A stretch of 63,125 nt of DNA, filler included, from Nemertoderma westbladi (taxonomy: Eukaryota; Animalia; Xenacoelomorpha), in NCBI GenBank assembly GCA_032718475.1. It is 3 parts of 3 records of this genome, joined end to end, with 100 filler letters (N's around TTAATTAATTAA, not from the genome) between each part and the next. Parts side by side here need not be neighbours in the genome. Positions count along the whole stretch, not along the records: positions 21,140 to 50,468 come from JAUCBJ010008106.1; 2 more parts are not named here. One strand, written 5' to 3'. This document shows positions 32,201 to 61,869 of this stretch, one piece after another. How positions within the stretch are numbered: position 1 is the stretch's first letter; each line of letters begins with the position of its first letter. The translations under genes and the position numbers were made by a program. The notes under the pieces are model-generated. The model made no database searches and was not told where the DNA came from. It was given only the letters and a program-made list of their open reading frames with translations.

Positions 32201-32503
32201 TAACTTTACAAACTCTATAGTTCCACTAACTGTACAAACTCTATAGTTCCACTAACTGTACAAACTCTATAGTTCCACTAACCCTTCCAAATCTATAGTT
32301 CCACTAACTGTACAAACTCTATAGTTTCACTAACTGTACAAACTCTATAGTTCCACTAACTGTACAAACTCTATAGTTCCACTAACCCTTCCAAATCTAT
32401 AGTTCCACTAACTGTACATACTCTATAGTTCCACTAACTGTACAAACTCTATAGTTCCACTAACTGTACAAACTCTATAGTTCCACTAACTGTACAAACT
32501 CCA
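29203..32503. repeat. Satellite array of the 26-bp unit TAACTGTACAAACTCTATAGTTCCAC, about 125 copies
   Basis: Head-to-tail, highly homogeneous, with recurring variant monomers. Confidence 0.97.
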
Positions 32504-32853
32504 TGATGGGATCTGTACTGTAGTTATCTATATACTGTTACTACTGGTAATTCATCAGTGTTGTGTTATGGACTGACTCTCTTCTACCGGTGCCTGTTGT
32601 GTTGTGTTGAGGCTGGAAATATATGGCTTAGGGCTATTAAGTACTGAAGTACCTACCGTTTATTCTAGTAACGAATAGAACATGGCGCTGCGAGTAGGAA
32701 GCTCTAGGGCTAGGGCTATTAAGTACTGAAGTACCTACCGTTTATTCTAGTAATGAATAGAACATGGCGCTGCGAGTAGGGTCATTATCCTCGGAACTGT
32801 GAATCATATAACCTGTCCCAGTGACTTATTGCTATAGGCCTACCGCTCAAAAC

Positions 32854-34158
32854 ATGGCTGACATGGAGACGCGCTTAAGGAAAACTCACAGTGGTTTCAA
32901 ATCGAATTTTACACGATTGGCTAATCGGTTTGAGGTGTCGATCGCAAATATACAAAAACTCTCGGTTGACGAACGACCCCAAACAATAATCGATGAACTC
33001 CGACGCCATAAAGAGAAACTGGAATTGGCGTACGATAAAATCGGCAAATCATTAGAGACGCTGCGCGCTCACGACGTGGATTGTACAGCCGATGACGGCC
33101 ACTACGACGATGTTACTGCACATATTTCGGGACTAGACAGCATATTCACTGTTATAATTAGCGAATCCGCTAAATTTTCGGGCAGACGGCCACCAGGATC
33201 CAACCCAACAAACACACCGGTAAGTAAGAGCGACAACGCACCAAGAGCAACGGCGAATCGACCGCCGGTTCTCGATGATGAAGTCGATATAAAGAAATTT
33301 GCTTGGTGGCGAATCGCGAGGAGCAACTACGCAAGGACGATTAAACTCCAAAATCAACCGCGAGATGAACAAATCTCAGCTTTCTTCGGTTACTGTAGTC
33401 CAACATTGCTCTCTAAACTGCAATATGTTGTAGAAATTCCACAGGATACAACATTAACATTAGATCAAGTCATCGAAAAATTCGAATTGTATTTGAAAGA
33501 AAAGCACAACATTGCGTTAGATCGATGGGAGTTGACAACTTGCAAACAACAGTATTCCGAATCGTTCGACAGCTACTATACTAAATTATGTGAAGCTGCG
33601 GACACCGCCGGGTTGCGTGACATGGATGAGGATGCGTGGATGAGTACGTTGATCACCGTCGGAATATTCGACGAGGAGATCCGCCAAGATTTATTGGCTA
33701 AATCCCCCACACTCAACCATCGGGAAACTGTAAAATTTTGTCGCAGTGAGGAGGCGGCACGTGCGCATTCTAAGAGAATGAAAACGTCCAGATCGGCAGA
33801 GATGGCGACATCCGCGGGGTTAAACTCACAAAAACAACGGGGCCGTTCGTCAACACACAAGAAATCTCCCTCGAAATCACGATATCAATCCCAAAATCGC
33901 TCACCCAGTAAAGGGGCTGAGTTTGAATCAGATAAATGTCAGCGCTGTGGGTATGTGCAGCACGGACACAGGGGCAGATGTCCCGCCATGGGTAAGATAT
34001 GTAATTTCTGTAAGAAAAAGAATCATTTTTCAAACATGTGTCTGTGTCGCAATAAAAGTGCGAATGCTACATCAGCTGACATTAATATAAATAACAATAC
34101 AAGTGTGTCGTCAGCGGTGAACATTGCAACGTGTGGGCACAATAAAATCAATGATTAG
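32854..34158 (+). CDS. gag: Gag with tandem zinc knuckles
   Basis: CKQQYSESFDSYYTKL capsid motif; CQRCGYVQH...CPAMGKICNFCKKKNHFSNMC double knuckle typical of Mag elements. Confidence 0.85.
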   Translation: MADMETRLRKTHSGFKSNFTRLANRFEVSIANIQKLSVDERPQTIIDELRRHKEKLELAYDKIGKSLETLRAHDVDCTADDGHYDDVTAHISGLDSIFTVIISESAKFSGRRPPGSNPTNTPVSKSDNAPRATANRPPVLDDEVDIKKFAWWRIARSNYARTIKLQNQPRDEQISAFFGYCSPTLLSKLQYVVEIPQDTTLTLDQVIEKFELYLKEKHNIALDRWELTTCKQQYSESFDSYYTKLCEAADTAGLRDMDEDAWMSTLITVGIFDEEIRQDLLAKSPTLNHRETVKFCRSEEAARAHSKRMKTSRSAEMATSAGLNSQKQRGRSSTHKKSPSKSRYQSQNRSPSKGAEFESDKCQRCGYVQHGHRGRCPAMGKICNFCKKKNHFSNMCLCRNKSANATSADININNNTSVSSAVNIATCGHNKIND

Positions 34159-34402
34159 TGTGGGCATAGTTAATGACTGTGCTAAGAAAGAATTTATTGC
34201 TGATTATATTTCAGTACCCGATACCGGTTCCGATATAACTGTAGGTGGGAGTCAATTTTGTAGGGATATGGATATTGATTTACTAAACCTACTGGAACCA
34301 GATAATGGGCGGCGACTGCTTAATATCAATGGGAAGGAACTTAAGCAGTTGGGCCGACTCATATTATATATTACTTTAGAGGGGCAAGAAATACGAGAAG
34401 AG

Positions 34403-36354
34403 AAAATCGTTTTGAGAAAATCGCACTTAAAGAAAAATTAAATTTTCAAGTCAAAATTTTCAATTTTTTTATTTTCAATGTGATATATGCAGTTTTTAAT
34501 GAGGAATCCAAATCTGTTAACGGTATGTTAACAGCTAGCTTAGTTTTGGAGATAATCAGCTTTGATTGAGAGTAGTCAGAAGTTTTGAAATTTAAATCTC
34601 ATTCCCGATAGATATTATGTTGTTCTATGTAGATTTACTCTTATAAATTAATTTATATGCCTTATTATTCCAATCCAATAGAAAACTATCTTCCAGTTAT
34701 TTTCAGTATGTTTGCTTGTCAATCGGTCTGTCTGTTTGTCTGTTTATCTGTCAAGTGTTGTCAGTCATTTTATAAATTTTTAGATCTTGGCTCAAAAATT
34801 ATAATTTTGATGGTATATAAGGGTTTTCGAGGTCGTTAAACACGATAAAACATCTAAAAATATTTTCTGGTAATGCAACTACCATTTTTGGTGCTATTTT
34901 GGACCCACAGGACGAAAAGTACAAGTAAAAAAATGTCAAATTAAAAAATGTTGTGTTTCGATTGATAATTCTGAATGTATGCGGGTTTTTGAGGTCGGTG
35001 ATCACGATAAAAAATGTTAAAAATATTTTTGGCAATACAACCATCATTTTTGGTGCTATTTTTGCCCCAGGACGAAAAGTACAAGTAAAAAATGTCAAAT
35101 AAAAAATTGTTGTGTTTCGATTGATAATTCTGAATGTATTCGGGTTTTTGAGGTTTGTTGTTCACGTGCTGCTCGAAGTCCCAGACCAGATAACTAGCTA
35201 CCTCAGTTGTTCACGTGCTGCTCGAAGTCTCAAACAAGATAACTAGATAGCTTTGTTGTTTACCTTGCTGCTCGAAGTCCCAAACTCGATAAAAACGTAG
35301 CATATTTGTGCACATCCTGCTCGAAGTCCCAGACTAGATAGCAAGCTACCTTTGTTGTTCACGTGCTGCTTGAAGTCCCAGACTAGTCTACTATAACTAG
35401 CTACCTTTATTGTTCACGTGCTGCTCGAAGTCTCAAACTAGATAACTAGCTAGCTTTGTTGTTCACGTGCTGCTCGAAGTCCCAAACTAGATAACTAGCT
35501 ACCTTAGTTGTTTACGTGCTGCTCGAAGTCCCAAATTAGACAACCATAGTTACCTTAGTTGTTCATGTGCTGCTCGAATTCTCAAACTAGATAACTAGCT
35601 AGCTTTGTTGTTCACGTGCTGCTCGAAGTCCCAAAATAGATAGTCATAGTTAGCTTACTTGTACCAGCGCTGCTTGAAGTCCCAGACTAAGCTACCTTAG
35701 TTGTTCGCATGCTGCTCGAAGTCTCAAACTAGATAATTATCTAGCTTTGTTGTTCACGTGCTGCTCGAAGTCCCATACTAGATAACTAGCTACCTTAGTT
35801 ATTCACGTACTGCTCGAAGTCTCAAACTAGATAACTAGCTACCCTAGTTGTTCATGTGCTGCTCGGAGTCCCAGACTAGATAAAAACCCAGCATAGTTGT
35901 TCACGTGCTGCTCGAAGTCCCTGCCTTAGATAACCATCCAGCTTAGTTGATCACGTGCTGCTCGAAGTCCCAGGCTAGAAAAAAAAAGGCAGCATAGTTG
36001 TTCATTAGTTTGCTAATGTACATTCCTATTACACATTTTGCCCCTCAAGCCTCAACATCACAACACAACAACAGACCCACTCCGATTTAGCAAACTCACT
36101 TTCAAGATATTTTGTAAGTAATCCCTACTACTATTAAAATACAACAAAAATTTTAAACGCGATTTACTCATAATAGTATATTTTCCATCTGGTTGTCTTG
36201 CCAATACTTAATTTCTAATAACTCTTGATGTACTCATCCAATCAGGATGATTTATAGCTCATTAGAGAGCTGAGATGTTGGCCAATCACATGCAATATCT
36301 AACTCAAAAACTTCATTTTCACCTTAAGGTACCTTTTCGCTTTCACTGCCACAA
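34403..36354. mobile_element. Unclassified non-autonomous element inserted in the Gypsy protease
   Basis: The protease (PDTGSDITV...IREE) resumes at ~36355 as IFICDGIDNLYLSLKACKAL. The insert has ~120-bp direct repeats (34815-35155) and a 49-bp minisatellite. Confidence 0.7.
35155..36005. repeat. About 49-bp minisatellite, ~17 copies
   Basis: Unit GTTGTTCACGTGCTGCTCGAAGTCYCARACTAGATAACTAGCTACCTTA. Confidence 0.9.
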
Positions 36355-36659
36355 ATATTCATATGTGATGGTATTGATAACCTTTATTTGTCACTAAAAG
36401 CTTGTAAAGCTTTGCGTCTAATTCATGAGAACTGGCCCCGACCACTTCCAGAAATATATTTCAATACTCGTTCCTGTTCTACTGGCATGTCCTGTCCCTC
36501 CGGTACTTCTAAAACTGAAAGTATTTTCAATAAAAATAAAAGGAAAATTTTTATTGAAAGCTTACCTGTAAATCCGACCCCTGCTGAAGGTCTGTCAGTG
36601 CGTGATAAATTAATAACATTTACCCAACTGTATTTAATTGTGATGAGGCATTAAAAACA

Positions 36660-39425
36660 ATGAGGGGTGACGTCATTGGTGAACCGATGAAAATATTATT
36701 GCAAGATAATTTTGTACCGTATGCTGTCCATGCGGCCCGGAAAATTCCTTTCGCTAAAAGAGAGGAAGTTAAGGCCGAAATAGATACTTTGGTGGCAAAG
36801 GGAATAATTGAAGCTGTAGGAGATCGTCCTACAGCATGGTGCCACCCACTCGTTGTGGCTAATAAACATGATGGCAGCCTTAGAATCTGTGTCGATTTGA
36901 CTAATTTAAATCGTCAAGTAAAAAGAGTTGTTCACCCCAGTACCTCTCCCAGTGAGGTACTGGCCGAAATCCCTCCAGATTGCAATTATTTTAGCACCCT
37001 GGATGCCAAAACGGCGTATTGGCAGATCCCCTTGGCCCCAGAGGCTTGTGACCTAACGTGTTTCATAACACCATGGGGTAGATTTGTGTATAACCGTGCC
37101 CCCATGGGTTACATTAGCACGGGCGATGCGTATAATTTGCGTATTGATATGGCATTAACAGGTTTAACTGAAGAAACCTATAGACTAGTAGACGGCATGG
37201 TTCTGGCTAGTAGTAATTTTAAAACTCACATAAATTTAGTATGTGATATTCTAGAACGATGCACAAAATTTGATATTACAATAAATCCAAAGAAATTCAA
37301 GTTGGGGCATGATGAAGTGAAATTCGGTGGTTATTTAATATCGGCTAATGGTATAAAAGCCGACCCTGACAAGGTCAGTGCTATAGCAGACTTCCCATCC
37401 CCTACTAATAGGATGGAGCTCAGATCTTTCTTAGGTTTAGTTCAACAGCTATCACAATTTACTCCAAAAATTAGTGCAATGGCTAGTCCACTACGTGATA
37501 TATTGAAAGTAAAGAATGTGTTTATTTGGACCCCGGTGCACGAGATTGCTTTCAAAAACGTTAAGTTAGCTCTTGTGACACCCCCTGTGTTAGCGAATTT
37601 TGATAAAACGGCAGAGATTAAACTGGAAACGGACGCCGCAAAGAAAAATGGCGGTCTAGGTTTTTCGCTTTTGCAAAAACGTAAAACAGATGACGACTTT
37701 AGATTGGTCCAATGCGGGTCCCGATTTTTGCGAGATTGCGAGACTCGATATGCTGTTATTGAACTTGAATGTCTTGGGATACAATGGGCAATAAACAAAT
37801 GTCGGTTGTATCTACAGGGTTTACAGCATTTTACTGTGGTAGTAGACCACTGCCCTTTACTTCCTATTATGAATAAATACACCTACGACATGATCGACAA
37901 TGTTAGAATATTGAACTACAAAATGAAATTGTCTGCTTACAATTATACTCTTGAGTGGAAAAAAGGCAAAGATAATTGTATTGCAGATGCATTATCCAGG
38001 GCCCCAGTTTTCGACCCACACAGTGATGACGTCGACGATGACGAATTCCCAGTAGATGTGGCCGCAGCTGTGTTTCAAACAGCTGTTGACAACATTAATG
38101 ATGAATTTTCCAAACCAAAGAAAGAAAATAAATATTATAAAGACCCAATTCTAGAACAATTAAAGATTGTTGCTAGAGAGGATAGTGATTATCAAGTATT
38201 GATAAATGCGATTGAGAAAGATTTTCAAACACCTGAAAGTGATAATTGTTTCGTGCAGCAAGTAAAAAAAATGTGGAGTGAGTTATCAGTTGAGGACGGC
38301 CTGGTCCTTAAAGGTCAACGTATAATAATTCCAAAGGCTGCTAGGGCTGATGTTTTGAAACGCCTACATTCCTCTCATCAGGGAATAGAGCGTACGAAAC
38401 GACGGGCGCGACAATCGGTTTATTGGCCCGGAATTGATAATGAAATCAAACAAACTGTAGAATCATGTGAAAATTGTCAATATTGGTTGCCTAGCAACGT
38501 CAAAGAGCCCTTAGTATCAGAGCCTATCCCCTCCAGAATTTTTGAGTCCGTTTCAGCGGATCTATTTTACTTCGGGGGTAAAACGTATCTAGCCTATGTC
38601 GATAGGCTATCAGGCTTTCCATTTGTCACGCAATGGCGTGATGATCCTACTTCTTCGCAGGTTGTGACGAAGATTCGTGATTATTTTATATTAACGGGAG
38701 TACCTGTCCGTATACGGACAGATGGCGGGCCTCAATTTGACTCGAAAGTTTTCCGAGATTTTCTTTCACGTTGGAATGTGGAATTGGTACTATCCTCTCC
38801 CGAATATAGTCAATCAAATGGCCACGCCGAAGTAACGGTGCGGATATTAAAGCAACTTGTCGGAAAGGCCGATGCTGGAAGAATCGATACCGACAAATTC
38901 CTCCAAGCACTATTAGAACTTAGGAATACCCCACGGGAGGACGGCCGTTCTCCTAGTGAAATCGTATATGGTCATCCAATGCGATCCAGCGTGCCAATGC
39001 ACCACCGTGCCTTCGATAAAAATTGGCAGGTAAATGCTGACAAAGCAGACGAAACTGCATGGCGGGCGTCGAAGTTTGCCAAACTTCGTTATGATCGCAC
39101 GGCAAGAACTCTATCAGAACTTGAGGTTGGGACTAATGTCCTTATTCAAAACAAACGGTCAAAACGATGGTCGAGGACTGGTGTGATAGTGGAGAAGGGA
39201 CAACACCGGGACTATCAAGTCAAACTCCCATCCGGTCGCATATTACGCCGCAACCGTCGTTTCTTGCGTCGCCGAGTCGAATCAGCGATTCCTTCACATC
39301 ACGAGATACTCACACCTCCAGATCCAGTATCACCTGTAAAACGTGTTAATACTCGTTCGATTCTTAAACCTATTTTACGGCGCAGTTGCAGAGAGAGAAA
39401 ATCCGTGGTTAGATTCAAAGTTTAG
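36660..39425 (+). CDS. pol: Pol: RT, RNase H, integrase (RT catalytic DD reads DG)
   Basis: LRICVDLTNLN, STLDAKTAYWQIPL, LVDG; ETDA, ELE, DHCPL, ADALSR; HSSH...CENC; SADLF, TDGGPQF, NGHAE. Confidence 0.9.
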   Translation: MRGDVIGEPMKILLQDNFVPYAVHAARKIPFAKREEVKAEIDTLVAKGIIEAVGDRPTAWCHPLVVANKHDGSLRICVDLTNLNRQVKRVVHPSTSPSEVLAEIPPDCNYFSTLDAKTAYWQIPLAPEACDLTCFITPWGRFVYNRAPMGYISTGDAYNLRIDMALTGLTEETYRLVDGMVLASSNFKTHINLVCDILERCTKFDITINPKKFKLGHDEVKFGGYLISANGIKADPDKVSAIADFPSPTNRMELRSFLGLVQQLSQFTPKISAMASPLRDILKVKNVFIWTPVHEIAFKNVKLALVTPPVLANFDKTAEIKLETDAAKKNGGLGFSLLQKRKTDDDFRLVQCGSRFLRDCETRYAVIELECLGIQWAINKCRLYLQGLQHFTVVVDHCPLLPIMNKYTYDMIDNVRILNYKMKLSAYNYTLEWKKGKDNCIADALSRAPVFDPHSDDVDDDEFPVDVAAAVFQTAVDNINDEFSKPKKENKYYKDPILEQLKIVAREDSDYQVLINAIEKDFQTPESDNCFVQQVKKMWSELSVEDGLVLKGQRIIIPKAARADVLKRLHSSHQGIERTKRRARQSVYWPGIDNEIKQTVESCENCQYWLPSNVKEPLVSEPIPSRIFESVSADLFYFGGKTYLAYVDRLSGFPFVTQWRDDPTSSQVVTKIRDYFILTGVPVRIRTDGGPQFDSKVFRDFLSRWNVELVLSSPEYSQSNGHAEVTVRILKQLVGKADAGRIDTDKFLQALLELRNTPREDGRSPSEIVYGHPMRSSVPMHHRAFDKNWQVNADKADETAWRASKFAKLRYDRTARTLSELEVGTNVLIQNKRSKRWSRTGVIVEKGQHRDYQVKLPSGRILRRNRRFLRRRVESAIPSHHEILTPPDPVSPVKRVNTRSILKPILRRSCRERKSVVRFKV

Positions 39426-41289
39426 TTTCAGTTTCAAACTGATGTTTTAAACTCAGAAAGAAAAGAAGGTGATGGGATCTGTACTGTAGTTATCTATATA
39501 CTGTTACTACTGGTAATTCATCAGTGTTGTGTTATGGACTGACTCTCTTCTACCGGTACCTGTTGTGTTGTGTTGAGGCTGGAAATATATGGCTTAGGGC
39601 TATTAAGTACTGAAGTACCTACCGTTTATTCTAGTAACGAATAGAACATATGGCATTTCTGTTATTTGTATAATTAGTAATTAACCTTATATACGATACC
39701 ATATATGTTAAACAAACTACCCCTGCCTAACCAATCAAGACACAAAGACTGCTCTACTATTAAACAGGGGTAATCAGGAGCGTGTTATTATTAAGGTAGG
39801 GCCGCTAAATACAAAACCGCTACTCACCGTTAGATGGCGCTAACCTGCCGTCCACTAATATATTTTACTAATTTTCTACGGCATCTGCTAATTACTTGTT
39901 CCTTTCTCTACCGATTGCTCGATAGAGAGCTAACTGTTCGAATATATGAGCCACGCGGGAATAACCAAAACAATAACCCGAATCGGCTCCCTAATCTGAC
40001 TTAAAACAAGTGTGAGAGGCTTTACACTCAGAGTGTATTCTTACGGCCTAATCTTGCTGCTAGAACGCGCTAATAATTACGTCTTTTCTAATCTAATCTA
40101 ATCGCAAATACTGGGGTTCCCTAACGGAATGTGTGAATGTGAGAATATTTAAACAATCAAAAAATCGGTACAGTTTTTTTTTTATTATTAGGGCTAATAC
40201 CTACTGTGGGACCAAACTTGCCTTCGGCTGGCTTTAGGCCAGCAATTTACTAATGCGAGCTGTATACTGTATACTACGATCTGACTTATTGCCCGCTAAT
40301 TCAAATAACCGCCCAGCGTGAATAGTGTACGGTACTCTAAATTATTACCTTAACTACTCTCCGCTATGCTGCGTACAAATTCTTAATTTTACTAATTAAT
40401 TACAGTCACAAATATGCAACAGCGTACTAATTACTAAGTGTTCCAGAAAGCGCAATTCTAATTTATTACGCAACGGGTTGCACTAGTAACAGTCTAATTA
40501 CCGTATTATTTTCGACCTAATCAGTAATTATTTATAGTAAACTAAGAAATAGAAATCAATCAAAGGGAAAAGAGCACCTATCTAAGCATTCGTGATTTAT
40601 TAGGCACACTTTAGTGACACACCAATCAGCATAACAACCTATAGTTCACAACTCGCAATCTACAGTTCGCAGGTTGTTTGCGACGTAGCCTACAGTTTAG
40701 CTCGCAATGTAAAGCACGCAGGCCTCTCCCGGGTACATCTAGGCTTCCTAACTAACCCAATTCCTGCCCCCCCTAATACTACAAAATAGAGACAAAATCT
40801 GGATTATCAACCCCTAATTACTGTACCAGCGAGCGGCCCTTCGCTCTACACTGCAACTCCCCAACCGCAACAGTGACCTCCCTGCCAGCGTCGCCTGCCT
40901 TTGAATCATCCGCACTCTCTTTGTTGCTAACCCCCCAATGCGCCCGCCGCACCTACCGATAACTTAGCCCCCCATTAGAATGAATAGCTACCGCAACGGC
41001 GCATGCAAATCACAAAGTCTGACAGTCTAAGAAATCCCGTAGGATTATTGCATCGAAAAGGAATCACATAGAACCATTAACTAAAGGGTAGAAATCATAG
41101 TTCCAGTTGTAATTAACAGTAATCATTGGGATTGATTGAGAAACACAAGCAAGAATCAGCAAAGATTACAAATTAGCGAATCATTGCAAGAAATAATCGA
41201 AAGGTAGAAATTACACAGAAAATGCTAAACTACTAAACTGCACAGCAAGTACTACAGAAGCACATACTACAGAAAAGGTAAGGTAAGGA

Positions 41290-41420
41290 ATAAGGAATAT
41301 TATGGTACCGGCAAAACGCCAATTTATAGGTGATTCAAGAGGGATGATGCAATCGCTCTCTCATTGGCTCCCCAATCCGCCCTAACATTGGACCAACCTA
41401 GAGGCAGCTAGGCCAATAAG
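41290..41420 (-). promoter_or_regulatory. Pol II promoter: CCAAT boxes, TATAAAT, initiator-like TTATTC
   Basis: CCAAT/ATTGG x4 in 41363-41416; TATAAAT on the minus strand at ~41321-41327; pyrimidine initiator-like sequence about 30 nt downstream. Confidence 0.5.
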
Positions 41421-42147
41421 GAAGCCGGATTGTGAACCTATCGCTCCCAGAAATCACAAATCATCACCATATAAGGTAATTTTGCCGATGCTTAATTTAG
41501 CGGTACTAATAATATGATGCACAAACATTAATTTAGCGCAATTTATAGAGAAAATTAAAACCAGTAGCTAGCCCCATCAAGGCTAATAACAGCAAGCCCA
41601 CATCCAGGGTCCAAACAGGAAACTTGCTAACCTGGAACTATCTACTTATATCTTATTACAAATTACATAGGTAGGGCTACATACTATACAAAATGGACGA
41701 ATTCAAATATATGGGCGTTTTATTTTCCTTATCTAAATGTCATTGCGCGTTATTATGTCTTATCTAAATAATTATACTGCATAACGGCTAATATATTATA
41801 CTGTATAACGGACTAATATATGTACAGCACCATATACCGTAACACCGCTCCAAGGGAAATCAGGCAATGTTTCCCTCCACTTGTAGAAGAGTATAAGGCG
41901 ATGTATACAAAACAAAATAAATTCGCTTTCAAATAATCTAAATGACTTGATACTATAATAATTCTACTATTTACAAATATTGCTATAGATATTGCATAAT
42001 GAATTGCATACAAATTAAATTTACAAAATATTATCTCTTTCAATGTTAACGATTATTACATACAAATTAAATTTACAAAAATACTGCTTTCCCATTCGTT
42101 CTACATAATGATTACTACATACAAATTAAATTTACAAAAATATTACT

Positions 42148-42724
42148 TCCTTTATAAAACTAACGTATAGAAGGTGTTTCCTTTATAAACTAACGTATAT
42201 AAGGTGTTTCCTTTATAAACTAACGTATAAAAGGTGTTTCCTTTATAAACTAACGTATATAAGGTGTTTCCTTTATAAACTAACGTATATAAGGTGTTTC
42301 CTTTATAAACTAACGTATAAAAGGTGTTTCCTTTATAAACTAACGTATAGAAGGTGTTTCCTTTATAAACTAACGTATAGAAGGTGTTTCCTTTATAAAC
42401 AAAACGTATATAAGGTGTTTCCTTTATAAACTAACGTATATAAGGTGTTTCCTTTATAAACTAACGTATAAAAGGTGTTTCCTTTATAAACTAACGTATA
42501 GAAGGTGTTTCCTTTATAAACTAACGTATATAAGGTGTTTCCTTTATAAACTAACGTATAGAAGGTGTTTCCTTTATAAACTTACGTATAGAAGGTGTTT
42601 CCTTTATAAACTAACATATATAAGGTGTTTCCTTTATAAACTAACGTATATAAGGTGTTTCCTTTATAAACTAACGTATATAAGATGTTTCCGTTATAAA
42701 CTAACGTATAGAAAGTGTTTCCTT
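42148..42724. repeat. 30-bp tandem repeat CTTTATAAACTAACGTATA(G/T/A)AAGGTGTTTC, ~19 copies
   Basis: Direct tandem array within the putative U3. Confidence 0.95.
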
Positions 42725-43119
42725 TTGTTGCCGTTATCCCTACACCAGGGGGGAAAAACGCCGATGCTGGAGACATGACTTAACAGACCACCGAGCCCCG
42801 GCCAGTCACCGGATATTGATTGTGGGGAGGGAATATTTTCTGAGATGCAGGGTTGCGGTTGAGAAAAAGCTGCATTAGTTGGATATACTATTTAATGTAA
42901 CTGAACTCTGTTGAACCTTGTTCAACAATATTGAACCTTGATTAAGAATAATTTTGGGCTTCCCCAAATCAATATACACCAAATATTCACAATAATTATA
43001 CACGATAATATAAATCCCTACGGTATATTATTTAATAACCCACTGTTCGCTCAGAATTTTAGCCTACCTAATGTTCCCAGATTTTCCCTCAGTCCCAGTC
43101 TTAGTGCCGTAGTGTCGGT

Positions 43120-43935
43120 GTCGGTCGACCCTGTCGCGTGTCCGTTCCACCCCTCACGAACCCCGAAGGGAACGATCATCGAGAACCAGCACGGCTTGGC
43201 TAATGGTCGGTCCAGTCGGTAGACTCTGTCGCGTATCCGTACCACCCCTCTCGAACCCCGAAGGGTTCGGTCATCGAGAACCAGTACGGCTTGGCTAGGA
43301 GTCTGTCGTGTCGGTGGACCCGTTCGCGTGTCCGTTCCACCCCTCACGAACCCCGAAGGGTTCGATCATCGAGAACCAGAACGGCTTGGCTAGGGGTCCG
43401 TCGGTTCATCACAGAAACCCAACCACCTAGGCTTTCCGAGTCCGTTTCAGGCTCGTAGTCGCTTCGGCAGCCGAGAAACTGCTCCGAACAGTCGGTAGGC
43501 CAGTAGAGTCTAGTCGAGTCTAGTCCTTTGTCTTTCGACCCCGTCGCAAATCCCAGTACAAGCAGTCAGCGTTCCGAGTTCTTTTCAGTCTCGTAGTAGC
43601 TGCCGTTGACCAGAGACCGCTAAGGGCAGTTCTCGTCAAACCCGTCTTGTGGCCAGCCCTTTCGCATGTCCGTCCCACCCCTCGCGAACCCCGAAGGGAT
43701 CGGTCATCGAGAACCAGTACGGCTTAGGTCAGGGGGCAGTCGTTAGTTGGCCGCCCGTTCGCGTGTCCGCTCCACCCCTCACGAACCCCGGGGTTCGATC
43801 ATCGAGAACCAGAACGGCTTGGCTACTAAGGGGCCGTCGGTGCCCGTCGCAAATCCCTGACACAAGCAGTCAGCGGTCCGAGTTCTTTTCAGTCTCGTAA
43901 TGGCTGCTGTTGGCCAGGGACCGCTAAGGGCAGTC
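43120..43935 (-). ncRNA. Array of structured RNA hairpins: 5 type A (kink-turn, UUCG-capped), 2 type B, 1 type C
   Basis: Units of ~90 nt with compensatory base changes in their stems. G-U wobbles and the C(UUCG)G loop favour the minus (element-sense) strand. Confidence 0.65.
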
Positions 43936-44407
43936 CTTGTCCTTTAGGCCTGGCGCATTACCAAATCCACCCCTACAGGCAGCAGGAAGTTGGCCAGGGC
44001 CTAATAGTACTCAGGCTAACCTGAATACTGCTTGCATTTTCCATCCCCCCTGGCCCTTACAACTATGAAATTATTCCCGTACCCTGTAAGTTGCCCCAAA
44101 GTTCGCCCATAAATCGCCCCCAGTTTATTGAATGTGCCCAAAACCCATGGTCCCGCACCCAGTAGTAATATCGGAATAATCAATTTTAATAAAATACAAA
44201 AATATTCAACTCGCGTTATGTAAAGTTGAAATACCGCGAACAGTCCCCCCCAATGACCTTCGTGAAGTCTGTCGGTAGATTGAGTTTGCGTAGGTCATTC
44301 CCAATATAAAAAACCCAAATTTAATATTGCATAGTTTTTAATTAATTTGGCCTAGAGTTTGTATAAAAATAAATGTTCGATAAATGTTCCTGGAATATCC
44401 CAATCCA

Positions 44408-47008
44408 CTATTTCTTTTTCTGATACGCCTTTCGTCTCTTCGCCCGTCGACTCTCATCGATCGCTATGGCTGGTAGAGGAGCGTCAACATCCATCGTGAG
44501 TAACGCTTCGGCTTGTCTCCTGGCGGCTCTTCCTTTCGAAGGCATCGGGATCATGTCGGTTCGTCTTTCCAACTCGGAGTTGCGAGCCTCGAGGAACCAC
44601 TCTCCGTCACCGAACTCTTCTTTATATGAGTATAATTGTCTAATGACTTCGAATGGGCCGAATAATCCGGCGCTCAGTAGCAGATCCACGTAATGGAAAG
44701 GTAGCGTGGCCGTCGTGTGGAGGCGTTCCGGGAAGGAGAAATATCCGCGCGCCATCTCCTGCGCGATATTCCGAGCGTTTCTCCGAACCTTGGTCCTTAA
44801 GTGGCTGTTTGCGTATGTCTCAAACATGACCATATTGCCCATAGCGGTAACGTCTTTGGTTGGACATTTGATATAGCAGCGGGGGCTAGCGGAATGTCCA
44901 CGGAAACCGCACGTGGTGCAGAGGTTATAAAGGATCGGACAGACCGAAACGTCGTGGCCCGATATCGCGCAGTATGGGCAATAGAGTATCCCGAGGAGCT
45001 GGAGGCAAGAATCGGTAACCCGATTCCTTCTGCCGCGTGGGCACTGCTCCGAGCCGCAGTCGCCGCATACCTCCAACTGCATTTCTCGACCGGGGAATAT
45101 CGGAATCGGGACGCCGACGTAGTATTCGAGTCGTCGGTCGCTCTTCGGAATATTCTCGGTGGTCGGTAGCCCGCGGAATGCTAGGCTTTTGCGTAGTATG
45201 TTCTCGCTCCGATAACCCTCTTTGTGTCCCGCTGGTCTCAACTCGGATGACCGTTTCTGGCGGTGGATCCATTCAGTTTGCTCGGCGTACCAACGGGTTA
45301 GTCGCATAGGGTCCTGAGGAACGGCGGGTGTAGTAGCCACCGCTGGTCGGCGAAGAGGTGCCGGGGTTTTCGACGGAGGGATACCGAGGAGATCGTCGGG
45401 GGTCGGCGCATCGCTGGGGCCCTCCTCGACCAGTATCGCTGAGCGGGTCCGTTGTTGGCTGGTACTCGGAATCTCCGACGACCAATCTTCGCCGCCCGGG
45501 AAAGGATACGGGGATAACCGTTGGCATATGTCGCCGAAGTCGCTCAATGCAGCTGTAGTGGCTACCTCTCTCGCGGGGCTACCGGAGCCGCGTGGGGTGT
45601 AGACGCCTGCTCTCTTCATCGGTTCGGCCGAGGCAACCCGTTTGGCGGCCGGTCCGTACGCGGCCTCCGGCTCGAGTTGTCGCTTCGGGGTGGAGAGTAG
45701 AACACCCTCGTTTAGCCATATCTCTTCCCCTTCCGAAGAGATCAGAGGCTCCTCCGCACCGAGAAGCTCGGTAATCGTAGGGATATCGTAAGGTCCGCTC
45801 TCGTCCCAGGATTCGATAACGGCGGGCGTTTTCGATTCTCCCGGTGTAATGTTCTCGACCGCTTTAAACGCGTGGTTTATAACCTCATTCCAGTCGTAGT
45901 CGACGAAGGAAAGGGGAACCGCCGTGATGAGGTTATCTAGAGCCTTGCAGATAAACTTAGCGACGGTGTAGCATTCCATAACGACGTAGATATAGCTCCG
46001 TCGATCGGGATTCTCCCACCTTTGGTGTATCGTCCACTTCCGATCGACGTCCTTCCATCGACCCTCTCGCTCGCTCTTTATCTCTAATCCCGGGTATCCG
46101 CCGTATATTTTATTATAGTCCCGGAATTTCTGGGGTTTGAAGTCGATACCGCCGTTGAGCACAGCGAGGTAGCCGATCCCGGATTTCGTCGGTCTCACTT
46201 CTTGGAATCCTCGCATGAACTCGGCGAATCGTAACCAGGCTAGCAGCGTTTGAGTGTCGATGCAATGGCTAAGTGCGTTGAGGTCGTTTCGTCGGTTTCT
46301 TCCTGCGGGAGCGTTCGCGTAGTCGTTCCGGACGTCCGCCTTGATATCCGACCCGATTTTAATGACGTCGAAGTCGAAGAGGATCTTTTGGATATCCGGA
46401 GGCAGCAACCAGATCGCTCCGGCTGCCTGCACTTCCTGTCTGGGTGTCGGGAATATTCGGCACACCAGTACCAAACCGTCCAGGGTTCTGAGGACGACGA
46501 CTAAGGATCGACCGTATTCTTTCGCCCCGTACTTTTCCTGGTAGTCGTCGCGGTTTTGGATAATCGATACGCGTTCCTCTCGAAGCGTCGCCGTACACTC
46601 CGACAGGTTTCCCCAGTGGGCGAGGTACGTACTCTTGTCGTCGACGAAACTTTGACATCTCGCCAACATAATCGCTTTCGAGGTGGGCGTCGCGTTTCCC
46701 TCGTTGTCGTAGATCAAACATCGGGATCTGTAGACGCTCTGCCGGAACGTTTCCCAAAACGACGAATCGTCCCCTCCGGTTGCCTTTGCGTTCCGAGTTC
46801 TTTTCAGTCTCGTACTAGCATCGGCTAACCGGAGGGCTCGTAGATTCTTAGAATCCGGTCCCTCTCGCCCGGTGAATTTAACGTCTCGTACGTTCTCATT
46901 TAGCAGAGTGCTCCAATTTGTATCAAAGTCAGGGGATCCAGGTTGCGAATATTCCAGTAGATCTATCGTGTTACGTAATTCGCCGATAATTTGGCGATTT
47001 GGGTCCAT
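44408..47008 (-). CDS. 866-aa accessory protein: DEDDy (WRN/EXD/RNase D-like) 3'-5' exonuclease fold, disordered linker, CCHC zinc knuckles, basic tail
   Basis: Exo I-like LIYDNEG; SLVVVLRTLDGLVLVCRI; LPPDIQKILFDFDVIKIGSDIKAD (Exo II); CIDTQTL; KSGIGYLA; RWE...YIYVVME (Exo III, D to E). CPYCAISGHDVSVCP...CTTCGFRGH...C. C-terminal RRAKRRKAYQKKK. The ORF is uninterrupted. Confidence 0.7.
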   Translation of the reverse strand: MDPNRQIIGELRNTIDLLEYSQPGSPDFDTNWSTLLNENVRDVKFTGREGPDSKNLRALRLADASTRLKRTRNAKATGGDDSSFWETFRQSVYRSRCLIYDNEGNATPTSKAIMLARCQSFVDDKSTYLAHWGNLSECTATLREERVSIIQNRDDYQEKYGAKEYGRSLVVVLRTLDGLVLVCRIFPTPRQEVQAAGAIWLLPPDIQKILFDFDVIKIGSDIKADVRNDYANAPAGRNRRNDLNALSHCIDTQTLLAWLRFAEFMRGFQEVRPTKSGIGYLAVLNGGIDFKPQKFRDYNKIYGGYPGLEIKSEREGRWKDVDRKWTIHQRWENPDRRSYIYVVMECYTVAKFICKALDNLITAVPLSFVDYDWNEVINHAFKAVENITPGESKTPAVIESWDESGPYDIPTITELLGAEEPLISSEGEEIWLNEGVLLSTPKRQLEPEAAYGPAAKRVASAEPMKRAGVYTPRGSGSPAREVATTAALSDFGDICQRLSPYPFPGGEDWSSEIPSTSQQRTRSAILVEEGPSDAPTPDDLLGIPPSKTPAPLRRPAVATTPAVPQDPMRLTRWYAEQTEWIHRQKRSSELRPAGHKEGYRSENILRKSLAFRGLPTTENIPKSDRRLEYYVGVPIPIFPGREMQLEVCGDCGSEQCPRGRRNRVTDSCLQLLGILYCPYCAISGHDVSVCPILYNLCTTCGFRGHSASPRCYIKCPTKDVTAMGNMVMFETYANSHLRTKVRRNARNIAQEMARGYFSFPERLHTTATLPFHYVDLLLSAGLFGPFEVIRQLYSYKEEFGDGEWFLEARNSELERRTDMIPMPSKGRAARRQAEALLTMDVDAPLPAIAIDESRRAKRRKAYQKKK

Positions 47009-47549
47009 ATTTACGATTATATCCGTTACAAATTAGTTCAGTTAATTGTAAGTCCAGAAAGTCTGAAACTATAGCGATAGCAGAATAATTCAGTTTTTTT
47101 TTATTTAATTCAGTTTATTAATAACATTGCTATATAGGCATCTATCATCTTATTGCTAATACATTCAGCATTTACAGTTACTATAACTATACATTTATAT
47201 CCAACCAGTTTTTATGACTTTTTTGTCCTTTCTTTTTTCTGATTCTTTTCTTTGACCTTTTTTATACCTTTTTTTTGTCTTTTTTCATTTCATTATTATT
47301 TCATCTCATTTCATTTATTTCCACATATATTTCAACATTTAGTTCCACCATTTATTTCCACATTTATTTATTTCCACATCATCATTGGGTTTATAGCCCC
47401 CCGGCTATCATCATTGTTATAAGCGCAGCACCAGGGTGCGCATCATTTTATTTTCATCAGTATACGCGTCATCATTCAGGTTTATAGTAGAGTTGTCTGA
47501 TCCTTTTCATCGTTTCCAACTATATTCAATCATTTTCTTTGGTTAATCT

Positions 47550-47985
47550 TTGTCGTGGAAGGGGTGTTACGCAGCAATCTGGGATCTACAGCTGGACTCG
47601 TTACACCGCCTACGCCCCAAACTGCACACGTAACGGACAATGAAGACGCTGGGAGTGAAGTCACGTGGATGCACCAGGGACCCACCAGAATAACACTCCC
47701 AACAACATAAAGCTCAGTCGACGAAGTCATGTGGGATGGGGTTACGCAACATTCTGGGATCTACACCTGGACTCGTTACACCGCCTACGCCCCAAAATCC
47801 ACGCAACGGTCCCACCAGAATAACGCGACTGAGAAACATAAAACCCTCTATCGTCGAAGTCATGTGGATGCACCATGGACCCACCAGAATAACGGGATAG
47901 AGGGGGTGTTGCGCGGCAATCCGGGATCTACAGCTGGACTCGTTACACCGCCTACGCCCCGAACTGCGCACGCAACGGACAACAT
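47550..47985 (-). repeat. Three ~180-bp structured repeats between pol and the accessory ORF
   Basis: Shared core GGGATCTACA(G/C)CTGGACTCGTTACACCGCCTACGCCCC, enclosed by GTTRCG/CGYAAC stems. Confidence 0.75.
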
Positions 47986-48255
47986 AACATACTGCGATGA
48001 ATACAATGAATTCCACTTCAAATCTTTTCCATTTCCAATAATCCAATACCGTTGGTCCTGATGACCAAAATCAGGGTAAACAATACATAAACGACCCTGC
48101 GTCAGTCGAAACATCTGCAGGGTGATGCTGGACTCCACATAACACACGAGGAAACACAAATACCATTGCGTGGTTACAGTTGGTTTAAAGGGGGTCCATA
48201 ATTCGTTGTCGATAAATCACAGTTAAAAAGAGTTTGTCAACATGATGAGAAGGGT

Positions 48256-50468
48256 TTAAACACATTTGTCATTGTCACCGATGTCTGCAGCAGGATCCGT
48301 AGTAGGGAACTTATCACCTCTTGTAGAATCACCACTGTCATTGCCTTCAAGAAGGCACAGCTTCTGGATGGGGCGTTGGTAGTGGCCCGCTTTCGTTCGT
48401 ATCGTCACAGTCCTCGCAAGTCCGTCTTTGCTTGGGTGTATGGTCACGACCCGCGCCACAGGCCAGTGAACGCGGTCTTTGAGATCTTCTTTAACTAGTA
48501 CCATGTCGCCAACTGCGACGTTCCGGTAGGTGTTGTTCCATTTCCTCCTGGTCCGGAGGGTTATGAGGTATTCCTGGGCCCAAATTCTCCACAAATGCGC
48601 TGCCAACGCTTGGGCCTTTTTCCAGTTTGTATGTTTCGCGATCTCGTTGGGATCCGGGAACATGGTTTCCGGGAGGAGATGGGTTTTGGGTCTCCCCAGT
48701 AAGTGGTTAGGAGTGAGGGGTTCCAGGTCTGTGGGGTCGTCGCGGATAGGAACGATGGGTCGGTTGTTCAGGGTAGCCGTGATCTCGCAGAATGTTGTGC
48801 GGAGGGTGTCATGGGTTACCCGGGTATCGCCTAGAGCGACGCGCATGGATCGTTTCACTAGGTCGATCAGTTTCTCCCATACCCCGCTCGTATGGGGTGC
48901 TAAGGGGGTCTGGAAGTGCCACTGTATCTGGTGTTCCTTCCAGACTTGGCATGCGGTGTTATCGGTAAACCATCCCTCGATCGCCTCTCTAAGTTCTCTT
49001 TCTCCTCCCACAAAGTTTGTACCATTATCGGAATACATGTGGCGACATGTCCCGTTGTTCGCCACGAACCGACGCAGAGCATTGATGAATGCGTGTTGTG
49101 TCAGATTTACCCTGATATCTAGGTAAATTGCCCTAGACCTTAGGCAGGTGAAGATGGCTCCCCAGCATTTGATGTTGGATCGTCGTTCAATAACCGTGAA
49201 CGGTCCGAAACAGTCCACTCCGGTGACGTAGAATGGTGCGGAATCCGCTTGTAGACGGGTGGCTGGTAAGTCGGCCATCTTTTGGGTGATTGGTGGCGCT
49301 AGGTAACGTCTGCAGGTGAAGCAACGTTTCAACACTTTCCGGATCAGTGGCTGGATGTGGGTGATCCAATATCTTTGTCTTATATTAGCTATAATCCAAT
49401 TCTGTCCTGCGTGGTGGTTGTCCTCGTGACATTGTAGAATTAATAGCTTAGCTAGTGTCGACGTTCCGGGCAGAAGCGCCGGGTATTTAACCTCATATTC
49501 GACCGGGGCGTTTGCCATCCGGGTATTCAGTCGGATCAGTCCGTCCTCTCCCATCATTGGTCTCAGTTGGTAGACTGGGCTGTCCGGTTTCAACGTTTTG
49601 CCCGCACTAAGTTGTTCCCATTCATCGGGGAAACTTTCTTTCTGGACATATCTAACAATACACTTCTCCGCAATAATGAGTTCTTGTATATTCCGTTGAA
49701 CTATCGGTTTGTTGTTTTTCCACCGTAGGAAGTTGCGAAGGGTTATAACGTGATAGACGAGCCGTCTCATGGATGAAGTTCGCTCGATCAACCGATGTAA
49801 AGACGCCGCTAGTTGGGTGATCGTCGCGACGTTATAGTGCCTGCCCGAGTCCTTTGCAGGCTCAGTCAGACAACTATAAATTTCCACCGCGTTGCTTCGA
49901 TGGATTTTACGGATCTCTTTATCGTCCTCGGAGTATTTTCCGCTATCGAGCTCGGGGTCGAATCGGGTACTCCATGTTAATTGTGGCTGCCGTAGGAATT
50001 CCGGGCCTGTAAGCCAGAGTTTACTTTTACCGAGTTGTTTTGGGGTGGCGCCTCGGCTTGATAAGTCCGCTGGGTTTTCCTTCCCGTTCACGTGATGCCA
50101 CTGTTCTCGGCCGGTACACTGTTTAATCTCTGTGGCTCGGTTTGCAACAAACGTGGTGTGACGCCGTGATGGAGAGTGGAGATAATAGAGAACTATACTC
50201 GAATCTACCCAGAAGTGTTGAGATTCTATGGGGATCCGTAGGTTCCGCATGGCCATGCGATTCTGTCTTACTGCCCAAACTGCAGCTTGTAGCTCGAGCC
50301 TCGGAATCGTTGCTACGAATTCCCCGGATACTGTCTTTGCTTTGGAGAATAAGAAGCTTGTATCGCCGTTTCCATCGTTACTTAGTCTCCGCAAGAAGGT
50401 TACTACGCCGATTCCGGTATTCGAAGCATCCGAAAAGGTATGGAGCTGGAAGATATCGGTGGGCAGTT
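48256..50468 (-). CDS. pol: BEL/Pao pol, C-terminal part: RNase H and integrase
   Basis: FSDAS, TIPRLELQAA, FWVDS, FVANR, WHHVNGKENPADLSSRG; H...HHAG...CFTC; GVDCFGP, YSDNGTNFVG, GVWE; VAVGDMVLV...WPVARV...DGLARTV...RPIQKL. Confidence 0.93.
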
Positions 50469-50568
50469 NNNNNNNNNNNNNNNNNNNNNNNNNNNNNNNN
50501 NNNNNNNNNNNNTTAATTAATTAANNNNNNNNNNNNNNNNNNNNNNNNNNNNNNNNNNNNNNNNNNNN
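50469..50568. other. Assembly gap with TTAATTAATTAA linker
   Basis: Same format as 21040-21139. Confidence 0.95.
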
Positions 50569-60432: not shown

Positions 60433-60738
60433 ACTTGTTCAGGGAAGTTTGAATATGCAAAATTACAAATAATAGACAACAAAAATATAAAATTGGATGT
60501 GCAGTTATTCATAATTAGCACTGTTAAAGTACTGGTGTTGTTATATTTATATTTAATAAATTGTATGATTTATTATTATTCCCCCCAAAAAAAATATGTA
60601 ATAAAAAATTATACTCAGAATAAGGTGTAACAGAACAATATTAAAGTACAGTTGAATACGAAAATACGGTACCTAAATAAAGTAACCTAGTAACTTCATT
60701 ATCTAACTAACTAAAGCATTGGTTAAGTTTTGCTAACA

Positions 60739-61869
60739 ATGGATTGTTTTACTTTATCTACCAACAGCTTTGCTGTAGATGTTTACAAGGAGATTGTAAA
60801 TACCCGATCTGATTCCAACATTCTGATCAGTCCAATTAGTATAATTACAGTGCTATCAATGACATATGGGGGTGCTGCAGGGGAAACTAAAGAACAGATG
60901 AGAAGTGTTCTACATTACACGGGCCAAAATGATGATGACATACATAAAGCCATTCATTCATTACAAACTTATCTTTATAGAGATGATAAGCCATACACTC
61001 TCGATGGGGCTAATAAGTTGTTTGCGCAAGAAGATTTCCGATTTAAAGATGAATTTTTAGCGCTGACCAAAGAACAATACGGGTCAGAGTTAGAGAAAGT
61101 CAACTTTAAGACATCTTTCAATGAAGTTCGAATACAGATCAATAACTGGGTGGAATCCATGACGAAAGATCGAATAAAGGATCTCATTGGTGAGGATGTT
61201 CTCAATTCTCTGACCAGATTGGTTCTGGTAAATGCTTTGTATTTCAAAGGAGAATGGGTAACACAGTTTGATCCCAAGAAAACCTCCCAAGGAAAATTCA
61301 TTACCGAATCCAAAGGAGAGGTCGATGCGATGTTTATGTATATGACGGAAAAGTTTAATGTATTTCGTAGCAAAGAAGTCTATGCGTTGGAAATGCCATA
61401 CAAAGGAGAGGATCTGTCTATGGTATTTATATTGCTACATCGCGGAATTTCAGACATCGAAGCCAAACTGAGCAGCGAATGGTTAGCCGAGGTGTTCAAA
61501 GGGTTTAGGAAGATCGAATTAGATGTTCGTATCCCTAAGTTTAAACTGGAAGATTCTTTCAGTTTGAAGGATACGCTTTCAGCTATGGGGATGTCGAATC
61601 TGTTTTCGGAAGAGCTTTGCGATCTATCTGGAGTGACTGGCGCTAGAGATCTGTTTGTTAGTGCCGTTCTACATAAGACCTTTGTGGAGATTAACGAAGA
61701 GGGTTCTGAAGCTGCTGCTGCTACGGCTGCTGTTGCGACGATGCGCAGCGGAATGGTGACACCTCCTTTCGAACTCAATCGGCCTTTTCTTTTCGCTATT
61801 AGAGAAAAAACAGATGGCAATCTACTCTTCTTGGGTAAAGTTACCAACCCTGGTCCACTACAAACGTAA
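60739..61869 (+). CDS. Intracellular inhibitory serpin (clade B-like), 376 aa, P1-P1' Arg-Ser
   Basis: NILISPISI, GAAGET, INNWVESMT, LVLVNALYFKGEW, IPKFKLE; hinge EEGSEAAAAT, RCL AAVATMR-SG, FELNRPFLF. No signal peptide; single coding exon. Confidence 0.95.
   Translation: MDCFTLSTNSFAVDVYKEIVNTRSDSNILISPISIITVLSMTYGGAAGETKEQMRSVLHYTGQNDDDIHKAIHSLQTYLYRDDKPYTLDGANKLFAQEDFRFKDEFLALTKEQYGSELEKVNFKTSFNEVRIQINNWVESMTKDRIKDLIGEDVLNSLTRLVLVNALYFKGEWVTQFDPKKTSQGKFITESKGEVDAMFMYMTEKFNVFRSKEVYALEMPYKGEDLSMVFILLHRGISDIEAKLSSEWLAEVFKGFRKIELDVRIPKFKLEDSFSLKDTLSAMGMSNLFSEELCDLSGVTGARDLFVSAVLHKTFVEINEEGSEAAAATAAVATMRSGMVTPPFELNRPFLFAIREKTDGNLLFLGKVTNPGPLQT

Follow-up and report, generated by a model that had tools for sequence, protein, structure and literature searches.

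A predicted RNase D/EXD2-type exonuclease with a Cys/His knuckle cluster as the third gene of a BEL/Pao retrotransposon in Nemertoderma westbladi

The stretch of Nemertoderma westbladi DNA analysed here (assembly GCA_032718475.1; 63,125 nucleotides in three joined parts, filler included, hereafter the window) carries a minus-strand open reading frame of 866 amino acids, ORF3. As the third gene of a BEL/Pao long terminal repeat (LTR) retrotransposon with multiple copies, it occupies the interval from the integrase to the polypurine tract (PPT). ORF3 is a real, conserved accessory gene, and exonuclease ORF3s as a type are known from rotifer elements. The N-terminal domain is almost certainly an RNase D/EXD2-type (DEDD/DnaQ-like) exonuclease fold. 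A DEDDy-fold exonuclease joined to CCHC knuckles had been proposed in a sequence-only reading of this DNA, and homologs, searches with profiles and a modelled structure support the proposal. The whole protein is tentatively read as a 3'-5' exonuclease with RNA-gripping knuckles, which would most likely serve the element by blunting host small-RNA silencing. What appears to be new is a rearrangement suggested by profile comparison: the strand that precedes the Exo I motif in the relatives matches residues 140-156 of ORF3, located after Exo I.

ORF3 and its host element

The features of the element and of ORF3 are as follows (NLS, nuclear localization signal; pLDDT, predicted local distance difference test):
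48256..50463 (-): BEL/Pao RNase H-integrase end of pol, with Pfam Peptidase_A17, Integrase_H2C2 and DUF5641
47009..48255 (-): spacer of 1247 nt between pol and ORF3, AT-rich close to ORF3
Ending at 47063 (-): TTTCAG, a candidate splice acceptor 54 nt ahead of the ORF3 ATG
44408..47008 (-): ORF3, 866 aa; built of an exonuclease-fold domain, a low-complexity linker, a triple Cys/His cluster, a conserved extension and a basic tail
46788..46819 (no strand assigned): 32-nt stretch of ORF3, codons 64-74, which occupies the place of the homologs' edge strand (beta0) and recurs in the putative LTR
46697..46753 (-): helix A and Exo I strand, aa 86-104 (D101, E103), found by profile scan; modelled as helix plus strand with pLDDT 67-91
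46511..46696 (-): segment of about 60 aa past Exo I, aa 105-166, in which aa 140-156 may be a displaced beta0
45893..46510 (-): core of the exonuclease, aa 167-372, which contains D225 of Exo II and Y341/E345 of Exo III
45089..45841 (-): low-complexity linker (Pro/Ser/acidic), aa ~390-640, without conservation among homologs
44864..45067 (-): three Cys/His clusters, C648-C715; one variant without His, one strict CCHC, one CX2CX4HX5C
44678..44824 (-): family-specific extension FE..A....T...GF...Y..LL, aa 729-777, without a Pfam match
44411..44449 (-): basic C-terminal tail, possibly NLS-like; basic tails also occur in the homologs P0001, P0004 and P0005
44239..44251 (-): PPT (G7), then AC-TGTT; likely 3' LTR start at 44242

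The ORF runs, as the sequence-only reading had it, from an ATG at 47008 (with A at -3 and G at +4) to a stop ending at 44408. Upstream, the pol product matches Peptidase_A17 (E 5e-17) and DUF5641 (E 6e-30), which identifies the Pao-type RNase H-integrase end; pol is interrupted by an assembly gap (N at 50469-50568), and the 5' part of the element lies beyond it. Downstream, 156 nt past the ORF3 stop, G7-AC-TGTT is the sole G-run followed by TG(T/A) from the pol stop to position 39600, and a PPT/3' LTR junction of such form is expected in BEL/Pao elements (PMC8742986). The placement of ORF3 in the env slot is thereby confirmed. The claim that the product is not an envelope protein was also upheld: a hydropathy scan and the modelled fold (no dedicated signal-peptide predictor was run) revealed neither a signal peptide-like N-terminus nor a transmembrane (TM) helix, since the most hydrophobic 19-mer (1.86, aa 168-186) is a beta-hairpin of the modelled core.

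Past the PPT, the region 39650-44242 shows a high summed contig depth, which is not a copy number, and tandem arrays of 30-nt and 95-97-nt units. Were it entirely LTR, it would measure about 4.5 kb, far over the 0.2-1.2 kb given for BEL/Pao; the far end of the putative LTR was not located in this region, and loose ends at 41103 and 41660 hint at a block that is variable or was inserted. An Rfam match to group-II-D1D4-1 at 39847-39929 (-), with 35.3 bits (cut-off 35) and E 0.0014, is probably due to chance. Internally deleted copies of the element exist, as contigs are joined across stretches of ORF3 and of pol: one X4 contig jumps 44793-45952 (a 1158-nt skip in ORF3, a multiple of three), and X1 and X2 contigs jump 48719-49507 (a skip of about 787 nt in pol).

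Homologs and gene order

A phmmer search of 1.8 billion representatives revealed seven homologs of ORF3 (E 2e-12 to 2e-4), five of which (P0001, P0002, P0004, P0005 and P0007) match it in the N-terminal domain and in the Cys/His region alike. The word-index search found no homolog with the whole ORF3 and six matches with the knuckle profile, by which P0011-P0013 were added to the family. A metagenome scan with two knuckle-region patterns confirmed nine loci (L001-L009) among 245 candidates; in viral contigs, 0 of 602 candidate stretches were confirmed.

In six of the nine loci (L003-L008) a BEL/Pao integrase is closely followed, on the same strand, by the ORF3 homolog, with Pao gag-pol present in L004 and L006. 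Knuckle motifs, not pol, had served to fetch the loci, which makes this adjacency an independent result. L004/L005, L006/L007 and L003/L008 are pairs of relatives, which together with the window make four element lineages, and the RNase H-integrase regions of the window, L004 and L006/L007 are 31-34% identical. Since the gene order is shared by four lineages whose integrases are so far diverged (three compared), ORF3 is an old accessory gene of several BEL/Pao lineages, a point absent from the sequence-only reading. The ORF3 tree (10 rows) has one well-supported branch among seven inner ones, and no donor or order of events can be derived from it.

Several loci have particular structures. No pol was detected within the 16.6 kb of L001, and in L002 and L009 the ORF is located at a contig edge. 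The intact homolog of L001 is flanked by degenerate direct repeats (8070-11133), and this locus is possibly a non-autonomous element bearing the ORF3 homolog alone. L003 and L008 are related broken copies, in which an interrupted ORF3 homolog comes after what is left of pol; L003 has a PPT and an LTR pair beginning TGTTG. P0002 (L002) combines a degenerate nuclease with two copies of the knuckle module, and L009 (3-3485) carries about 680 aa of unrelated sequence ahead of an intact DEDD domain.

Exonuclease fold

Pfam returned no match for ORF3 or its exonuclease region at the gathering threshold, whereas the L007 homolog is over the PF01612 cut-off (26.1 vs 23.6 bits). A hidden Markov model built from nine homologs, with the window excluded, aligns aa 160-389 of ORF3 with 58.5 bits. 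The family profiles match EXD2 (E 0.038 with alignment A6, E 6.9e-6 with alignment A10) and the exonuclease-like domain of Egalitarian (E 0.003), and PF01612 clusters account for 24/30 matches in the ESM Atlas (score 0.92). HRDC, the domain that comes behind the nuclease in Rrp6-like proteins, was not seen in Pfam scans of the window or of seven homologs, scans which are insensitive for the ORF3 family.

An AlphaFold model of aa 78-400 (predicted template modelling score 0.61) was built on a 15-row alignment steered by Exo I fragments as additional rows. With this model, EXD2 is the top Foldseek match (E 0.012), and VIA gives Z scores of 9.9-7.9 over the 50 rows listed; the best has Z 9.9, root-mean-square deviation (rmsd) 3.9 and 165 aligned residues, and the Aedes Nibbler EXO domain Z 9.7, rmsd 4.0 and 176. 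By their names, we take 50/50 of these rows to be DEDD-fold domains: NrnC/diDNase, Nibbler, RICE1, Exd1, Pol I, RNase D, TbRND, Egalitarian, Rrp6 and WRN. The BFVD fold search gave nothing at E<=0.001, and its top rows are 3'-5' exonucleases. Two further attempts were discarded: a phmmer search of the PDB with aa 86-403, whose single match was judged to be chance, and a single-sequence fold with an unusable pLDDT of 32.

Active site

The motifs listed in the sequence-only reading are all present, and their assignment to Exo I, II and III survives testing. The tetrad consists of D101 and E103 (Exo I), D225 (Exo II) and E345 (Exo III). A helix A and Exo I profile of eight homologs peaks at aa 86-104 (..LIYDNEG) with z 5.3, a value reached in 0/3000 shuffles of aa 1-170, and with the D/E columns removed this site still ranks first (P 0.037). 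In leave-one-out scans the true Exo I sites score 4.0-22.1 and rank first in 7/8 proteins; the window site, with 12.6, falls within this range, and three rival registers score from -9 to -23. The model places aa 97-104 as the predicted strand. Most unsteered alignments leave a gap in the window where the homologs carry helix A and the Exo I strand, which suggested that Exo I was deleted and that IYDNEG was a chance motif; the profile scans and the leave-one-out scans rule this out. The supposed WRN-like spacing did not hold, as D101 lies 101 aa ahead of the LP motif vs 41-68 aa in 8/9 homologs (L009 has no motif match).

D225 aligns with an Asp of P0001, P0004, L005, L006, L007 and L009. The final Exo III residue is Glu in the window, P0001 and P0004 and Asp in L001, L005, L006, L007 and L009; ORF3 therefore has Y341-x3-E345 in place of the strict DEDDy pattern Y-x3-D. 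Twelve family proteins possess the domain (L004/L005 counted once; the count covers neither the broken L003/L008 nor knuckle-only proteins), and all four acids are kept in seven of them: the window, P0001, P0004, L005, L006, L007 and L009. Between the variant and the pseudo-nuclease, both previously considered, the evidence leans to the variant, because P0001 and P0004 have the Exo III Glu with the other three acids intact; the pseudo-nuclease is less favoured. The domain is predicted to be a DEDE variant that works like a DEDDy domain, and ORF3 has a slightly better than even chance of being an active nuclease.

Knuckles and the adaptor alternative

Three Cys/His clusters were found where CCHC knuckles had been claimed, of which the strict CX2CX4HX4C form is present only in C677-C680-H685-C690. 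Invariant in the 11 aligned proteins are C648, C651, C668, C677, Y679, C680, H685, C690, L693, C697, C700, R703 and H705, and past the knuckles E730, A733, T739, G755, Y773 and L777. The knuckle profile matches lentiviral nucleocapsid, Lin28 and Air2 (E 7e-4 to 8e-3; nucleocapsid and Lin28 7e-4 to 1e-3) and TbRND weakly. The best Atlas match of the knuckle region, DUF8363 (fungal; 0.86), is a lead only, and for the extension behind the knuckles there is no known counterpart.

The constancy of this module bears on an alternative, less likely than not but only a little behind the exonuclease reading, in which the same fold has little or no catalytic power and serves, in the manner of Egalitarian or EXD1, as an RNA-binding adaptor; it would hold the genomic RNA of the element with its knuckles and nuclease pocket and escort it in nuclear export, transport or packaging. 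The knuckle module is invariant in all members while four of the 12 (P0002, P0005, P0012 and P0007) are degenerate and have lost catalytic acids; the final Glu, the segment of about 60 aa beside the active-site strand, the Egalitarian profile match and the basic tail point the same way. There is also a precedent in CERV, a nuclear Cys-rich protein of the LTR element Cer1 that is needed for genomic RNA export, according to the portion of PMC10309623 consulted. On the other side, the seven four-acid members come from lineages whose divergence reaches 17-30% identity, and they hold the acids in register, which is rare in decayed pseudo-enzymes, and the final Glu is common to three of these seven.

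Selection among copies

Much of the stretch is represented in four DNA runs, which come from three studies; 2539 contigs align to 45850-47100, with 80-100% identity. ORF3 variants were tested over the first 386 codons, on the best-supported 40 of 229 variant rows, two of which lie outside ORF3 and were dropped. Synonymous changes make up 22/38 variants vs 11.0 expected from the same base changes at random places (p 1e-4). When a 13-row cluster of diverged copies is set aside (one of its rows is a stop if taken singly), 17/25 are synonymous vs 7.6 expected (0/20000). The five catalytic codons are touched by 0/38 variants. The indel table on 45850-47100 (3% share) holds four rows from one contig, with a net change of +3 nt, within the segment past Exo I. 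In a wider contig alignment, each of the 12 indel rows listed, out of 170, falls outside pol and ORF3, and 4/9 of the pol variants listed are synonymous. These counts support constraint on the first 386 ORF3 codons. Neutral evolution among copies had been named beforehand as the outcome that would count against the ORF; what was found is a synonymous excess, expressed as variant counts and not as a full ratio of non-synonymous to synonymous rates.

The same data bear on the view of ORF3 as a passenger, that is, a captured gene of the host or another element carried neutrally, or the ORF of a separate insertion beside pol. In its favour, pol and ORF3 of other copies are not joined by any of the contigs listed, the assembly gap takes away the 5' part of the element, and three of the nine loci (L001, L002 and L009) show no pol. 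This view is largely refuted and very improbable, given the pol-ORF3 order common to four lineages, the PPT directly downstream of ORF3, and, when copies are compared, the synonymous excess and the near lack of frameshifts. The position behind pol in four deeply diverged lineages together with the synonymous excess therefore indicates a maintained function.

The segment after Exo I

The segment of about 60 aa after Exo I was not mentioned in the sequence-only reading. In five homologs the edge strand (beta0) starts 30-31 aa ahead of the Exo I Asp; at this normal place in the window the edge-strand profile scores from -7 to -15, and in the whole ORF3 it peaks at aa 140-156, past Exo I (z 5.2; P 0.0003, a value inflated by the anchoring of the five segments by eye in window-containing alignments). 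When P0004, the closest sequence, is omitted, this match still ranks 1/850. Residues 104-165 match homolog N-regions in 2/7 pairwise tests (p 0.0075 and 0.015, uncorrected). An internal duplication of the N-region was not detected: aa 1-83 match 0/7 homolog N-regions (p 0.13-0.66) and do not match aa 104-165, and no DNA repeat was seen. The 32-nt stretch at the usual place of beta0 has 97% identity with 43569-43600 and, over 27 nt, 96% with 43873-43899 (blastn E 1e-9).

The topology of the DnaQ fold makes a helix A/Exo I-first order sterically possible. The simplest account would be a duplication of the N-terminal part of the domain followed by reciprocal loss, giving the order helix A, Exo I, N-segment, edge strand and hairpin. 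From the profile matches, a permuted DnaQ fold is a plausible reading, short of an even chance; an unrelated insertion is the somewhat likelier one. Against permutation stand the helix predicted around aa 140-156 and the lack of a surviving internal repeat; both models (single-sequence and AlphaFold) give a helix and not a strand in this segment, at a pLDDT of about 50 and with almost no aligned rows. None of the four runs shows an insertion at 46520-46560, the 83%-identical contig included, and the arrangement past Exo I is the normal state of the element family.

Proposed function

According to the exonuclease reading, ORF3 would be made from a transcript of its own, either spliced or with an internal start, for which the acceptor ending at 47063 is a candidate, and may be sent to the nucleus by its basic tail. 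The zinc knuckles may grip single-stranded RNA, by analogy with trypanosome RNase D, and a likely two-metal site, D101-E103-D225-E345, would trim the RNA in the 3'-5' direction. In the predicted fold, Exo I would be formed by aa 97-104, with the next 60 or so residues looped out or re-threaded. Trimming would most likely weaken host small-RNA silencing of the element; if the enzyme is active, this counter-silencing role, drawn from analogy, is narrowly favoured.

Several observations weigh against this reading. The catalytic evidence is qualified by the Glu that ends the tetrad in place of Asp, by the missing Exo II Asp of L001 and by the four degenerate members; since the knuckles stay invariant where those acids are lost, catalysis is dispensable in some lineages. 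As for the model, its mean pLDDT is low (62.8), its alignment was steered towards the Exo I register and shows this register to be feasible, not unique, and Foldseek gave nothing at E<=0.001; unsteered MAFFT runs mostly put the window in other registers. The selection evidence comes from a fraction of the variant rows and from the first 386 codons, both variants listed in the C-terminal half of ORF3 are non-synonymous, and one X3 contig skips 122 nt within ORF3. The silencing role itself is an argument by analogy alone.

The same catalytic evidence would also suit an active exonuclease working in the replication cycle, where it would trim tRNA primer 3' ends, element RNA, or cDNA ends before integration. 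The knuckles resemble retroviral nucleocapsid, the fold also matches the DNA-active Pol I and WRN, and the accessible text of PMC5408684 suggests that rotifer DEDDy ORF3s process the 3' ends of element RNA. This role is nevertheless somewhat unlikely: descriptions of BEL/Pao elements give them gag, pol and, at the most, env (PMC8742986), so that most replicate without ORF3, the ORF is set apart from Gag-Pol with no evident way into particles, and several members have lost catalysis.

A more far-reaching combination, improbable as a whole, would make these elements an ancient BEL/Pao clade in which a small-RNA counter-defence nuclease (exonuclease plus triple knuckle) replaces env. The enzyme of this high-copy family would in addition be a DnaQ fold with a natural permutation: helix A and the catalytic strand would stand ahead of the N-segment and edge strand, a shift probably due to duplication followed by reciprocal loss, with filler from the LTR in the vacated place, and the active site would be kept under selection.

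Why retroelements carry exonucleases has been a question since the rotifer finds, where the ORFs looked recent and neutral; BEL/Pao is a family thought to add env alone. The intact (DEDD and DEDE) and degenerate members on one knuckle module form a natural series in which catalysis can be told apart from RNA binding, and the soluble two-domain protein is directly testable. Few transposon-encoded antagonists of silencing by PIWI-interacting or small interfering RNAs are known. A naturally permuted DnaQ domain, if true, would be of interest to structural biology.

Other features of the window

A separate gypsy/Mag-like element is located at 32504-39649, with a gag-like ORF (32812-34155), pol (36609-39425), 180-nt LTRs that are 99.4% identical, an additional 82-nt partial LTR repeat at the left end and internal tandem arrays; no matching target-site duplication was found for it. 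Its left LTR adjoins a satellite of about 127 copies of a 26-nt unit (29196-32501). At 3981-11969, perfect inverted repeats of 856 nt, 6.3 kb apart, surround a 692-aa ORF (6422-8497) and likely mark a DNA transposon. An intronless serpin ORF lies at 60727-61866 (+), its best solved relative being leukocyte elastase inhibitor (E 3e-75).

Comparison with known systems

Belpaoviridae with an env-like third ORF, e.g. Atlas and Cer13, share their pol domain order, PPT and third-ORF slot with the window element (PMC8742986; part of PMC9094657). In contrast to their env-like product, the window encodes a predicted soluble nuclease-fold protein. The word "exonuclease" does not occur in the available text of PMC9094657 and PMC3118150, nor in that of the International Committee on Taxonomy of Viruses profile (PMC8742986). 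The literature search, which covered articles, in part as excerpts, but not Repbase/GyDB entries or supplements, found no exonuclease ORF for BEL/Pao, including in PMC11662393 and a 2026 Atlas-virus preprint. The closest precedents are found in bdelloid rotifers, as the sequence-only reading had stated, whose Juno and Vesta elements carry such ORFs; the nematode precedent named alongside was not found. Malik, Henikoff and Eickbush (2000) may mention an exonuclease domain in nematode Cer elements.

The Juno and Vesta elements belong to the clades of the same names, which are gypsy-like, and the window element to BEL/Pao. DEDDy (RNase D-like) ORF3s with the motif DEED, a recent gain, are described for Juno and Vesta LTR retrotransposons in the accessible text of PMC5408684, where "nematode" occurs 0 times, and for Terminons in that of PMC6431247. 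As far as these texts go, the rotifer ORF3s resemble the window ORF3 in being exonuclease ORFs in the env slot of an LTR element, without a TM segment and with an activity that is only predicted. The differences relate to the motif (DEED, whereas the present family has DEDE or DEDD), to the triple-knuckle C-terminal domain, which the same texts do not describe for rotifers, and to age: the rotifer ORF3s are recent, family-specific gains, whereas here the gene order recurs in far-diverged elements, a comparison made by description only.

EXD2, Nibbler (Mut-7), EXD1, Egalitarian and NrnC (PF01612) share the fold and the Exo I-III motifs with ORF3, which differs from PF01612 domains by its 11-20% identity, final Glu, segment past Exo I and fused knuckles. 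No single PF01612 subfamily is closest: the VIA rows are tied within 1-2 Z, though EXD2 is the best profile and Foldseek match.

The nearest architecture is that of TbRND, the RNase D of Trypanosoma brucei (PDB 7C42/7C45), likewise a DEDD exonuclease followed by a tandem CCHC array, in which the binding of RNA is provided by the CCHC domain, which also enhances cleavage, according to the part of PMC7797062 consulted. Both family domains match it weakly, and the model aligns with Z 8.7 and rmsd 3.8 over 169 residues. As described in the same part of that source, TbRND is a cellular mitochondrial enzyme for guide-RNA U-tails and has four knuckles behind a linker of about 28 aa, whereas ORF3 is an element gene and has three behind about 250 aa, plus the family-specific extension. 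Because the two proteins are 15-16% identical, their shared architecture is likely convergent.

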